Shown: positions 13,643 through 16,659 of the stretch, piece by piece
Layout: every line of letters begins with the position of its first letter
Position numbering within the stretch: the first letter of the stretch is position 1
Assembly (NCBI GenBank): GCA_965248355.1
Contig: OZ252098.1
Coordinates: forward strand, 5,120,001 to 5,184,000
Origin: Candidatus Latescibacterota bacterium
Lineage (GTDB): Bacteria; Latescibacterota; UBA2968; UBA8231
Length of the DNA stretch: 64,000 bases
Direction of reading: 5' to 3'
Made by a program: the position numbers and the translations under genes
The notes under the pieces: generated by a model
The model's database searches: none
Seen by the model: only the letters and a program-made list of their open reading frames with translations
Told to the model about the DNA's origin: nothing

Positions 13643-14986
13643 ATGATTCCACGGTCGATTCCCTTGGTCCTGCTGCTGGCGGCTCTAACTGCGCCGGCTC
13701 TGGCGCAAGCCGGCCCCTCGGCGGCGGCCGGGACCGACACGACGGACGTCTACGAGACCCGGCGCAACCACCTCCTCGCCTTTCCGAAGTACGTCTGGAA
13801 CACCCTGGTCTATCCCATCGGCCGGTTCACCATCTGGGTCGAGCACGAACAGGTGCCCGCTCGCGTGGTGGATCTGTTCACCAACGAGGCGGAGACCTTC
13901 GGGGTCTTCCCCTACGGGGCTTTGGGCGGAGAGACGGGAACCGCCGGCGGATTCACGACGTTCCATTCCGATCTGTTCGGACGCGGCAAGGGATTCTCGG
14001 CGAGCCTGGTCTCCAACCGCGGCAACTACAGCGGAGCCGCCCTGTACGACGACCCGGGCATCGGCGGCGGCCCCTGGTACTGGAATGCCTCTGTCGAAGC
14101 GCTGAGGACGGGGCATGAGAACGCCACCATCAACGGTAAGCTGCGGGGGGCGGGTTCCCTGCTCGATCTCGAGCAGAGGGATGCGAGGATCGCCCTTGGG
14201 CGCGGCTCCAACTACGGCGAGACCGAGGGCTACGAACCGGATGCGATCCTCGAGCTGCGCCTGTCCCACGGCTTCCGGGAGTACGTCGCCGACTGGCCCA
14301 TGCCTTGGCATATTCCCGGCCTGAACCAGGCCATCAACCTGTTCTCGGTGGGCGCCGCAGCAGCCTTCGACGACCGCGACTTCAAGCCGTCCACCACCTC
14401 CATCAGCCATCCCTTGAACTACCAGTTCCCCGGGCGGGTCCTCCTCTTCGCCGACGACCGCTACTACAGTTTCCGCGACACGGCTTTCCCCGAGCACGGC
14501 GGACTGGCCAGCATCGAGGCGGACTATGTAGCGGGTTCCAGGGACGTTCGGTATCTCCGCTACGCAGCCGAGCTGCAGCGCTTCTTCACCCTGTTCTACA
14601 CGAACCGGATCCTCGGTCTCAGGGCCAGGCTCGAGAACACCCACGCCTTGGGAGAGGCCAGCCTTGTCCCGTACTCCGACATGCCCACCCTGGGCGGCGG
14701 CCAGCGGCTGCGCGGCTACCGGCGGGGGTTCTTTCGCGACAAGGGCAGCCTGCTGCTCAGCGCCGAGTACCGCTACCCGATCTGGGATACCTGGAACGCC
14801 TTCCTGTTCTGGGAGGAAGGCCAGGTGTTCGAGAGGTACGGAGATCTCGAAGCTGGCAGGTTCGAGTACAGCTTCGGCGCCGGCATCAGCGTGCGGACCG
14901 AGCGCGCCTTCCTCTTCGGTGTGCGCATCGCGCGCAGCGAGCAAGAGAAGGCGTTGACCGGCTTCTCGCTGGAGAAGGAGTTCTGA
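13643..14986 (+). CDS. Omp85 (BamA/TamA-family) outer-membrane beta-barrel, no obvious POTRA domains
   Basis: Signal peptide MIPRSIPLVLLLAALTAPALAQA; loop-6 motif LGGGQRLRGYRRGFFRD; SAEYRYPI; C-terminal Phe (SLEKEF). Confidence 0.8.
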   Translation: MIPRSIPLVLLLAALTAPALAQAGPSAAAGTDTTDVYETRRNHLLAFPKYVWNTLVYPIGRFTIWVEHEQVPARVVDLFTNEAETFGVFPYGALGGETGTAGGFTTFHSDLFGRGKGFSASLVSNRGNYSGAALYDDPGIGGGPWYWNASVEALRTGHENATINGKLRGAGSLLDLEQRDARIALGRGSNYGETEGYEPDAILELRLSHGFREYVADWPMPWHIPGLNQAINLFSVGAAAAFDDRDFKPSTTSISHPLNYQFPGRVLLFADDRYYSFRDTAFPEHGGLASIEADYVAGSRDVRYLRYAAELQRFFTLFYTNRILGLRARLENTHALGEASLVPYSDMPTLGGGQRLRGYRRGFFRDKGSLLLSAEYRYPIWDTWNAFLFWEEGQVFERYGDLEAGRFEYSFGAGISVRTERAFLFGVRIARSEQEKALTGFSLEKEF

Positions 14987-16659
14987 TGAGCTCCCTGCGA
15001 GCCGCCATGCTGCTGGCCTTCGTGCTCTTGTTGCCGGTCGCAGGTGAGGCCACCTCCAGGCTGACGGCCGACCCCATCAAGTGGTTCGACGCCGACAACA
15101 AGCCGATCGCCGAGCCGGCCGAGGCCGGCGAAAACAAGATCTGGGACTTCATCGACAAGACCACCTTCTACCAGGTCGGCAAGGTCCTCGACCTGGGGTG
15201 GACGGCCCGCCGGGTGGGCCACCTCCTCGGCGTCGTCGGGCCGCGTCAGGCCGACAACGTCAACGCCCTGGACGAGGTGCCCAACTCCTCGTGGTACACC
15301 AACCGGCACTTCCTGCGGCCCATGACCCTGGCGGAGTTGGCCGAAGGGCCGGGGGTGGCCCGGCCCGACGACAGCGGCCCCTGGGAGATCGTGGCCGGCA
15401 AGTTCGAGGGGATCACCGCGGGCTTCACCATCAAGGACGCCTCGGGCCGGTACTTCCTGCTCAAGTTCGACTCGAAGGGGAACGACGAGATGGGGTCCGG
15501 CTCCGAGGTGGTGGTCACCAAGGCGCTGCACGCCGCCGGCTACAACGTGCCGCGCAACTCGGTCGTCTACTTCGATCCCGGACAGCTGGAGATCGGCCCC
15601 AGGGCCAAGGTCTCGGCGGGAGACGGTGAGAAGCGGGCCATGACCCGGGAGGACCTGCAGGAGATCCTCGACAGCCTCACTCCGCAGCCGGACGGCACCC
15701 TGCGCTGCCTGGCGAGCCAGTTCCTCGAGGGCAAGCCGGTAGGGGTCTTCAACTACGACGGCCGGCGCAAGGACGACCCCAACGACAAGGTGGACCACGA
15801 GCACCGGCGCGAGCTGCGGGGGTTGCGCGTCATCGGCTCCTGGCTGAACGACGCCGACCGCCGGGCCGCCAATACCCTGGACATGTACGTGACCGAGGCC
15901 GACGGCCGCAGGTACGTCCGCCACTACCTGATCGACATGGGCTCCGCCCTCGGCAGCGGCAGCTGGAGACCGCACCAGCCCAAGCACGGCAACGAGTACA
16001 TGGTGGATCTGCGCACGATCTTCGGGTCCTTCGTCTCGTTGGGGTTCTACCGGAAGGAGTGGGAAGAGCCGGTGCCCATGTCGTACATCTCCCTCGGCTA
16101 CTTCGAGAACGAGACCTTCAGCCCCGGGGGGTGGGTGCCGGACTATCCCAATCCCGCCTTCGAGCGTTGCACCAACCGCGACGGGTACTGGGGCGCCAAG
16201 ATCGTCATGGCCTTCGGCGACGACGAGATCCGCGCCATGGTGGAGCGGGGGCGCTACTCCGATCCGGGCGCGGCGGAGGAACTGACCCGGCTCCTGGCGG
16301 AGCGGCGGGACATGATCGGGCGCTACTGGTTCGAGCGGGTCAACCCGCTGGACCGCTTTGCCGTTGACGGCTATCAGCTTCGATTCGTCGATCTCGCCGT
16401 GGAGGGCGGGCTCGTTCCGCGTGAGTCACGGCAGTGGCGGTATGCTGTCGTCGACGCGGAGGGGGATCGGCTGGTCGAGCCGCGGCGGGTGGCAGAGCCG
16501 GTCCCGATCGGGGACGAGGCACGGCCGGGTCGGTTCTTCGGCTACCGGCTGCAGAGCCGCAGCGGCGAGAGGGAGAAGTGGAGCAAGAGCACGACGGTGT
16601 TTCTGTACAATCACGAAGACGGACGTCTGCAACTGGTGCGGATCGACAGGGAGGAGTAG
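14986..16659 (+). CDS. Exported protein with atypical protein-kinase-like fold (HipA/PI3-4K/CotH/Fam20-type motifs)
   Basis: ATG overlaps the upstream TGA. Signal peptide MSSLRAAMLLAFVLLLPVAGEA; GKFEGITAGF, FLLKFD, SEVVVTKALHAAGYNVP, WLNDADRRAAN, YLIDMG. Confidence 0.65.
   Translation: MSSLRAAMLLAFVLLLPVAGEATSRLTADPIKWFDADNKPIAEPAEAGENKIWDFIDKTTFYQVGKVLDLGWTARRVGHLLGVVGPRQADNVNALDEVPNSSWYTNRHFLRPMTLAELAEGPGVARPDDSGPWEIVAGKFEGITAGFTIKDASGRYFLLKFDSKGNDEMGSGSEVVVTKALHAAGYNVPRNSVVYFDPGQLEIGPRAKVSAGDGEKRAMTREDLQEILDSLTPQPDGTLRCLASQFLEGKPVGVFNYDGRRKDDPNDKVDHEHRRELRGLRVIGSWLNDADRRAANTLDMYVTEADGRRYVRHYLIDMGSALGSGSWRPHQPKHGNEYMVDLRTIFGSFVSLGFYRKEWEEPVPMSYISLGYFENETFSPGGWVPDYPNPAFERCTNRDGYWGAKIVMAFGDDEIRAMVERGRYSDPGAAEELTRLLAERRDMIGRYWFERVNPLDRFAVDGYQLRFVDLAVEGGLVPRESRQWRYAVVDAEGDRLVEPRRVAEPVPIGDEARPGRFFGYRLQSRSGEREKWSKSTTVFLYNHEDGRLQLVRIDREE

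Follow-up and report, generated by a model that had tools for sequence, protein, structure and literature searches.

Among the kinases that act outside the cytoplasm, CotH and Fam20 are extracytoplasmic, CtkA is secreted, and Fam20C in the Golgi lumen depends on ATP imported by a carrier. The bacterial periplasm is treated in textbooks as free of ATP, and the machines of the envelope are explained by working without it. As far as the available text of PMC7432876 goes, the route by which ATP could enter the periplasm is unexplained, because the known Gram-negative models lack an ATP/ADP translocase. The accessible portions of PMC5381601 give no known role for the NTT nucleotide transporters of free-living bacteria and treat the fusion of NTT with HEAT repeats as a widespread, uncharacterized architecture, and those of PMC11358297 leave the function of the noNterm Omp85 proteins unassigned. 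Here we describe a gene of a Candidatus Latescibacterota bacterium, located at 14986–16659 on the + strand of a 64,000-nucleotide stretch of contig OZ252098.1 (the window, to which all coordinates refer), that encodes an apparently exported kinase-like protein. The protein defines a kinase-like family that is new, and its envelope context, which is new as well and conserved, is an operon with an Omp85-family barrel that lacks POTRA domains and a homologue of the TLC/NTT nucleotide transporters.

The open reading frame has a stop-free translation of 557 amino acids plus a stop. Its product begins with MSSLRAAMLLAFVLLLPVAG, a signal-peptide-like hydrophobic segment, and we place the putative signal peptide at approximately residues 1–22 (14986–15051) from a hydrophobic helix at 2–18 in the structural model, the cleavage site not being a tool prediction. 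This is followed by a conserved N-terminal extension (residues 24–117, 15055–15336), an atypical protein-kinase-like domain (residues 118–452, 15337–16341), and a C-terminal FN3-like β-sandwich (residues 453–557, 16342–16656). A scan of the protein against Pfam and NCBIfam returned no families at E ≤ 1. Searching the PDB with the single sequence gave one uninformative row, the sigma factor SigA at E 0.86, and searching it with a profile of the close family (alignment A1, 41 homologues at 49–86% identity) gave no rows at E ≤ 10. Homologues are named 'hypothetical protein' wherever a source name was shown. Because the Pfam, NCBIfam, and PDB sequence searches are all uninformative, an annotation pipeline would call this protein hypothetical, as the initial annotation of this DNA had anticipated.

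The protein almost certainly has a kinase fold. An AlphaFold2 model from alignment A1 (mean predicted local distance difference test score, pLDDT, 89.1; predicted TM-score, pTM, 0.89) shows the bilobal architecture of the superfamily of protein-kinase-like (PKL) proteins, and the secondary-structure order of its motifs is, as modeled, canonical for a kinase. Strands β1 (133–139) and β2 (146–150) meet at the Gly-rich loop A137–F147 (AGKFEGITAGF, 15394–15426), strand β3 (156–160) ends with the lysine K160 (LLKFD, 15463–15465), and the αC glutamate E174 (SEVV, 15505–15507) lies within a helix at 169–183. A hinge motif, G185-Y-N-V-P189 (15538–15552), comes next. In the C-lobe, a helix (280–287) is followed by the catalytic loop 288–296, N288-D-A-D291-R-R-A-A-N296, with D-x4-N spacing (15847–15873), then by a hairpin (297–315) and D317 of the DFG equivalent I316-D317-M318-G319 (15931–15942). 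The β3 lysine, αC glutamate, catalytic aspartate and asparagine, and metal-binding aspartate of the superfamily are therefore all present and in canonical order; the coordinates of the initial annotation for K160, NDADRRAAN, and the start of IDMG agree with these positions, as does its Gly-rich loop sequence.

A Foldseek search of the model against the PDB returned 11 matches at E ≤ 1e-3, all of them kinases. The list is headed by Fam20C (4kqa, 1.8e-4), PI4KIIα (4hnd, 3.9e-4), Hydra Fam20 (5xom, 6e-4), and CtkA (3akl, 8.3e-4), with CotH, Vps34, HipT, PknB, and Rio2 among the further matches. In the fold comparison CtkA is the best structural match, and CtkA, Fam20C, CotH, and HipA score at least as high as the lipid kinases. 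The structural alignments with Fam20C and HipA extend N-terminally to model residues 31–41, within the conserved extension. These matches agree with the resemblance to PI3/PI4K, Fam20, and HipA proposed in the initial annotation, and its caution that the substrate is not readable from sequence holds for structure as well, since the fold searches give similar scores to kinases of proteins, lipids, and glycans.

Profile comparisons hint at the HipA_2 family as a possible remote relative. Alignment with hhalign of a profile of 128 cluster representatives at 32–51% identity (alignment A2) to a 34-sequence HipA_2 profile (A4) gave a Prob of 78.4% and an E of 1.7e-5 over 228 columns, with only the N-lobe in register. 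Within it, K160, E174, and P189 align with K39 and E54 (invariant) and the nearly invariant P69 of HipA_2, and the pairing of E174 and P189 with E54 and P69 bears out two earlier proposals, an αC glutamate and a HipA-like G..VP motif. A comparison with three HipA_2 proteins from the same phylum yielded E 0.016, for the N-lobe alone. The Pfam scan at E ≤ 0.5 took in 85 of the 128 members of A2. It found sub-threshold matches to HipA_2 (PF20613) in 11 of the 85 and to HipA_C (PF07804) in 10 (18 members in union, in a single register), and to any other family in at most 2. The best of these scores are 22.6 bits against a cut-off of 27 for HipA_2 and 16.4 against 30.5 for HipA_C; the best match is that of member P0205 to HipA_2 (7.4e-5), on the stretch equivalent to the catalytic loop. 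Neither the PI3/PI4-kinase family (PF00454) nor Fam20 (PF06702) has a Pfam match in the 557-residue protein or among the 85 members. The nearest named clusters in a protein atlas, Fam20C, HipA_2, PI3_PI4_kinase, and LepB_N at 0.79–0.81, are leads only. The protein belongs to a family of its own in the CtkA/HipA, PI4KII, Fam20, and CotH corner of the kinase-like superfamily, outside all curated families.

This family is large. Of 8,000 candidates scored in a word-indexed search, 2,324 proteins reached E ≤ 1e-3. When 1.84 billion cluster representatives were searched exhaustively, 2,926 reached E ≤ 1e-3 and 826 reached E ≤ 1e-30. The family comprises 2,926 or more clusters at 50% identity, among which we saw no informative name. 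All 41 close homologues retain K139, G142, G146, K160, G185, V188, P189, N288, D289, D291, R292, R293, N296, H313, D317, and G319, and residue 174 is E in 36 and D in 5. Across the 128 diverse homologues, K160 is retained in 120, P189 in 118, D291 in 123, N296 in 121, H313 in 125, and D317 in 122, residue 174 is E in 94 and D in 24 (118 with either), and K139, G142, and G146 of the Gly-rich loop are kept in 113, 119, and 108. Position 318, methionine in the window, is F in 109 of the 128, so that most homologues read IDFG, a literal DFG; the consensus of the diverse alignment is LNHxDxRxxNTL ... HYLIDFGS. Conservation of the motifs is far beyond chance, and the K, E, D, N, and D singled out in the initial annotation withstand alignment in close and diverse homologues alike, the αC glutamate as E or D. 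Judging from these residues, the protein is probably competent for catalysis.

The most conserved motif of the family, which is absent from the initial annotation, is the stretch containing D267, H271, R275, and R278. These four residues, together with G185, D399, and W402, never vary among the 128 diverse homologues, and D264 is present in 127. The motif spans D263–G279 (DDPNDKVDHEHRRELRG, 15772–15822) in the window, within an insert relative to HipA_2, and its family signature, DDPNDxxxHEHRRELRG, stands directly before the helix leading into the catalytic loop. The N-terminal extension is conserved as well, with D35, D37, P44, W53, D54, D69, G78, A89, D90, N93, S101–W103, and R107 invariant among the close homologues.

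An extracytoplasmic location for the protein is very likely. A hydrophobic N-terminal segment is found in 113 of the 128 diverse homologues, and 52 of them carry a lipobox-like motif, so many homologues are predicted lipoproteins. The description of the protein as exported in the initial annotation accordingly agrees with the signal peptide seen here and with the lipobox-like motifs of its relatives.

Beyond what that annotation described, the operon of the kinase gene is conserved and also encodes an Omp85 barrel devoid of POTRA domains and a TLC/NTT transporter. The gene directly upstream (13643–14986, + strand; P0273) encodes 447 amino acids from an ATG at 13643, in an open frame that starts with a TTG at 13571. 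It matches Pfam Omp85 (PF01103) at 7.4e-11, with 42.6 bits against a cut-off of 24. In its AlphaFold2 model (pLDDT 82.7), helices at 43–68 and 71–78 precede a barrel of approximately 16 strands at 86–442, for which Foldseek returned BamA/TamA barrels at E 6e-13 and 114 matches at E ≤ 1e-3 in all. The sequence contains an RLRGY motif of the L6 type and an FWDEG motif, both conserved in an alignment of the barrels (A3). The protein thus has the 16-strand barrel and the RGY-type L6 motif of the Omp85 superfamily. Pfam matches no POTRA domain in it and none is seen in the model, and we therefore place it with the noNterm type. The junction between the two genes reads TGATG, the kinase ATG at 14986 overlapping the barrel stop by one base, which predicts that the kinase gene is translationally coupled to the Omp85 gene.

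The downstream gene (16666–18117, + strand) starts 6 bases after the kinase stop and encodes a 483-residue homologue of the TLC/NTT nucleotide transporters, which scores 75 bits for Pfam TLC (PF03219; 7e-21), above the cut-off of 21. Next comes a decayed remnant (18120–18650, + strand) of the metallophosphoesterase gene that in related loci stands behind the transporter gene as the usual fourth member of the unit. A blastx search with 18100–18720 recovered two pieces, corresponding to residues 162–200 and 323–373 of a 384-residue neighbor protein from one of the related loci described below (L059), with a best E of 1.2e-14; the family of that neighbor is Pfam Metallophos. The start of the remnant keeps a signal peptide, a lipobox-like LIGSAC, and LLFGDGG, and because the two pieces lie close together, an internal deletion is indicated. 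We rejected 18120–19088 as an intact metallophosphoesterase, since this stretch has no Pfam match and only the two short blastx pieces. Past the remnant, a gene for an MscS-type mechanosensitive channel (18672–19595, − strand; PF00924, 2.1e-10) converges on the operon end. A scan of 13300–18800 for promoters and terminators found no promoter-like and 3 terminator-like sites, which is not above shuffled sequence. PADLOC assigned no families to the three operon proteins, and a role in defense was dropped on this ground.

We compared 79 related loci, which were drawn from contigs representing one genome per species (of 602 matches to the pattern, 481 turned out to encode a relative, and we retained the best 80). 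Neighboring genes in loci of high G+C content were called with a crude open-reading-frame rule and clustered with BLAST, so individual rows can be wrong, and taxon names are the record labels of metagenome bins. An Omp85-family gene lies at most 450 nt upstream of the kinase gene on the same strand in 67 of the 79 loci. In another 3 it lies within 2 kb, two of these having a metallophosphoesterase gene in between; it is absent from 6, and 3 have too little flank. Five loci (L030, L032, L069, L073, and L078) contain tandem barrel-kinase-barrel-kinase pairs. Such tandem duplication of the barrel-kinase pair as a unit suggests that every kinase has a cognate barrel.

A TLC-family gene occurs in 40 of the 79 loci, the labels of which cover at least seven phyla. 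In 35 of the 66 loci that have at least 1.5 kb of flank it lies downstream on the strand of the kinase gene, and in 22 it is directly adjacent. Full-length fusions of NTT and HEAT repeats (906–1,058 amino acids) occur in nine loci (L011, L012, L013, L036, L042, L061, L065, L008, and L072), often right behind a short NTT, so that many units hold two different NTT-type carriers. Metallophosphoesterases (BLAST clusters c3 and c8) neighbor the kinase in 16 of the 79 loci and PAP2 phosphatases in 3; among solved structures, the c3 type is nearest to purple acid phosphatase (5.7e-5).

The labels of the loci include Latescibacterota, Gemmatimonadota, Calditrichota, KSB1, Zixibacteria, Marinimicrobia, Poribacteria, Acidobacteriota, and Bacteroidota, the last represented by Rhodothermales, Balneolaceae, Ignavibacteria, and Cytophagia. 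One cultured strain, Aliifodinibius salipaludis WN023 (L042), is among them. One locus (L027), a 2-kb contig with the label of a Heimdallarchaeota bin, codes for a family member with 55% identity, although the family is otherwise bacterial, and the contig is probably misbinned. In several loci (L038, L044, L056, L017, L015, and L031), large sensor histidine kinases of the PAS/GAF or 7TMR-DISM type lie beside the unit on its own strand and are possible regulators of it; PAP2 phosphatases are found in L044 and L056.

The link between kinase and transporter can also be followed at the level of genomes. The genome that contains the window (5.50 Mb in one contig) has a single copy of the kinase gene, which adjoins the only TLC-family gene found there. 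Of 153 genomes from the phylum with a completeness of at least 80%, 40 carry the kinase and 60 a TLC match. By hand count, the TLC match occurs in 35 of the 40 kinase-positive genomes versus 25 of the 113 kinase-negative ones, with the reservation that related genomes are not independent. In 19 of the 40 kinase-positive genomes, likewise by hand count, the TLC gene lies at most 5 kb from the kinase gene.

Based on these observations, the reading that we favor, and for which we consider the balance even, is that of an active kinase of the periplasm or outer membrane that works with a barrel partner and receives ATP through the NTT. A Sec-exported atypical kinase core, flanked by the conserved N-terminal extension and the C-terminal FN3-like domain, would be produced together with the barrel and the TLC/NTT protein from one translationally coupled operon. 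The kinase would be a periplasmic protein at the outer membrane's inner face, held by a lipid anchor and/or by the barrel, and would work with the barrel partner, to which it is probably bound (a predicted docking). There it would move phosphate from ATP to a substrate in the envelope, which may be a protein, a lipid, or a glycan. The neighboring NTT, as an ATP(out)/ADP(in) exchanger, would bring the ATP across the inner membrane; we infer this direction from the antiport mechanism, and a supply of ATP by the NTT is a tentative proposal that falls somewhat short of an even balance. In many relatives, a co-encoded purple-acid-phosphatase-like metallophosphoesterase may strip the phosphate or clear nucleotides. 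A dedicated system of extracytoplasmic phosphorylation in many diderms (the FCB group, Acidobacteriota, and allied phyla), in which the NTT exports ATP, the barrel-docked kinase uses it, and the phosphatase reverses the reaction, is a broader and more doubtful extension of this model. By analogy, such a system would be a bacterial counterpart of the Fam20C system of the Golgi.

Several observations weigh against the model as a whole or against its parts. With regard to the kinase, none of the 85 family members scanned attains the gathering score of a Pfam family, the printed hhalign alignment to HipA_2 has the catalytic loop and DFG out of register, and the comparison with the single HipA of E. 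coli is not significant (E 0.15), only the catalytic loop being aligned, with GATDGHAKN of HipA. Between 5 and 8 of the 128 diverse homologues lack one or another catalytic residue, as pseudokinases or through alignment errors. With regard to the transporter, an NTT is absent from 39 of the 79 loci, and in one genus (g30, with 10 kinase-positive genomes) the TLC gene is not beside the kinase gene, the matches being weak at approximately 22 bits. The downstream gene of the window scores 60.9 bits for the NTP/NDP exchange transporter TIGR00769, far under the cut-off of 387.2, so any assignment of its substrate is provisional. Characterized NTTs import nucleotides (PMC5381601), and periplasmic phosphatases would compete for ATP (PMC7432876), as far as the accessible text of both sources goes. 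As for the barrel, the corresponding portion of PMC11358297 has Omp85/TpsB proteins usually inserting or translocating proteins, and on that basis the kinase might be exported to the surface of the cell.

One alternative differs from the favored reading in the substrate alone: the protein would be a lipid or glycan kinase of the envelope, acting on an outer-membrane lipid, lipopolysaccharide, a lipid carrier, or a polysaccharide, and cycling with the PAP2 phosphatase or the metallophosphoesterase. The fold by itself is silent on the substrate. The protein kinases CtkA, Fam20C, CotH, and HipA score as high as or higher than the lipid kinases, none of the 85 members scanned matches PI3_PI4_kinase in Pfam, and PAP2 is encoded in only 3 of the 79 loci. 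We regard this alternative as unlikely.

A second alternative resembles two-partner secretion (TPS). Here the barrel would export the kinase to the surface or the medium, where external targets and external ATP would be used, and the NTT would be linked for another reason, for example nucleotide uptake. The secreted kinase CtkA as the best structural match is consistent with this, as are the extracytoplasmic kinases CotH and Fam20 and the Omp85-family gene directly upstream of a signal-peptide partner in 67 of the 79 loci, in pairs that are duplicated as units. Members of the Omp85/TpsB group translocate partners encoded next door, according to the available parts of PMC11358297 and PMC5422565. 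However, the barrel lacks POTRA domains (Pfam finds only the barrel, and the model consists of two helices and the barrel), and the partner has no TPS or hemagglutination domain (no Pfam families) and folds as a kinase. Moreover, the lipobox-like motif in 52 of the 128 homologues fits a membrane anchor, and the NTT and phosphatase neighbors are left unexplained. Secretion of this kind is thus a rather improbable account of the unit.

It is also conceivable, and we consider it very unlikely, that the unit serves nucleotide scavenging, with the barrel as an outer-membrane passage for external nucleotides, the kinase-like protein as a periplasmic binder or converter of nucleotides, the metallophosphoesterase as a nucleotidase, and the NTT as an importer. 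Import is what characterized NTTs do in the accessible text of PMC5381601, hydrolysis of nucleotides in the periplasm by phosphatases and 5'-nucleotidases is documented in that of PMC7432876, and NTT, NTT-HEAT, and Metallophos genes co-occur in the loci. However, conservation of the full K, E, D, N, and D set for phosphotransfer favors catalysis over binding, half of the loci lack an NTT, and a kinase in the periplasm would in turn require a donor of phosphate. To our knowledge, Omp85 barrels are not known as solute channels. The available text of PMC11358297 speaks of insertion and translocation only.

That the protein is a pseudokinase or scaffold, which keeps the fold but serves the Omp85 barrel only in a structural or regulatory capacity, is scarcely credible. 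In favor of this reading, catalysis is predicted here from sequence and model, the strictly invariant residues (G185, D267, H271, R275, R278, D399, and W402) are not the classical catalytic ones, and the pseudokinase Fam20A is among the structural matches. Against it, K160, D291, N296, and D317 are retained in 94–96% of the 128 diverse and in all 41 close members, the glycines of the Gly-rich loop are kept, and the link to a nucleotide transporter fits the use of nucleotides.

Other features of the window are recorded here for completeness. A Mutator-family transposase gene (8307–9578, PF00872) is located between two open reading frames with WD40 repeats (6549–8222 and 9623–13546), all within 6549–13546 on the + strand. 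The second of these also encodes four Big_1 domains and a C-terminal tail resembling a type IX secretion sorting domain, and the two may be one large gene split by insertion of the transposase. Upstream of them, 2694–4589 (+ strand) encodes a 631-residue protein with the uncharacterized pair DUF6785 and DUF6784 (3.4e-83 and 1e-25), followed by an open reading frame of 650 residues (4589–6541) without a Pfam family. The G+C content is 0.54–0.64 at 30001–36000 versus 0.65–0.75 elsewhere in the window, and this segment may be foreign DNA or contain RNA genes.

The unit joins a large, unannotated family of exported kinase-like proteins to a homologue of ATP/ADP translocases and to a barrel, in many phyla. 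Searches of the literature library used here found no paper on this family or unit; a 2026 preprint that deals with kinase-like families from the oral microbiome describes, in its available part, other families, and its supplement could list a relative. If the favored reading is correct, the unit would offer ATP-dependent chemistry a testable way into the envelope of bacteria, outside the cytoplasm, and would provide a first function for the NTT carriers of free-living bacteria, for the NTT-HEAT fusions, and for the POTRA-less (noNterm) Omp85 proteins. The cultured A. salipaludis WN023 makes the unit experimentally tractable. As a minimal result, this HipA/Fam20-like family merits a family model, by which thousands of 'hypothetical proteins' could be named.

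Among described systems, the partners of the kinase resemble the following. Type Vb secretion, as in FhaC/FHA, shares the 16-strand barrel of the Omp85 family encoded beside a signal-peptide partner, but TpsB proteins carry a pair of POTRA domains, with a TPS domain in the partner protein, and neither feature is found here. The noNterm Omp85 proteins described in the available text of PMC11358297 are closer, as the barrel of the window also has no N-terminal periplasmic domain. The downstream gene passes the Pfam cut-off for TLC, and related loci carry NTT-HEAT fusions of approximately 900–1,050 residues. Characterized NTTs belong to intracellular parasites and plastids and act in import, whereas the present homologue falls under the NCBI cut-off for exchangers and occurs in a 5.5-Mb genome of the free-living type; the accessible portion of PMC5381601 makes no mention of a link between NTTs and an exported kinase.

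With respect to the kinase itself, Fam20C and its relatives have no detectable sequence similarity to this family, with 8–10% identity in the structural alignments. Fam20 proteins are eukaryotic (the atlas notes bacterial relatives), located in the Golgi, and without a barrel partner. PI4KIIα/β, the PI3/PI4K-like kinases, and MavQ are cytosolic and membrane-associated and act on inositol lipids, whereas no match to PF00454 is found here. The HipA/HipT toxin kinases are cytoplasmic and accompanied by an antitoxin; the present protein has a signal peptide, its neighbors are Omp85 and TLC genes, its similarity to HipA stands at E 0.15, and no HipB/HipS-like gene is among the recurrent neighbor families of the 79 loci. 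A further comparison is with CtkA of H. pylori and HipA_2 (PF20613), under the Pfam cut-off of which this family scores. The family differs from them in a signal peptide or lipobox, an N-terminal extension of approximately 95 residues, the DDPND..HEHRRELRG insert, an FN3-like C-terminal domain, and a catalytic loop of shorter spacing, D291-x4-N296 versus D141...N148 in the HipA_2 consensus. The operon partners, an Omp85 barrel and an NTT, are likewise features of this family.

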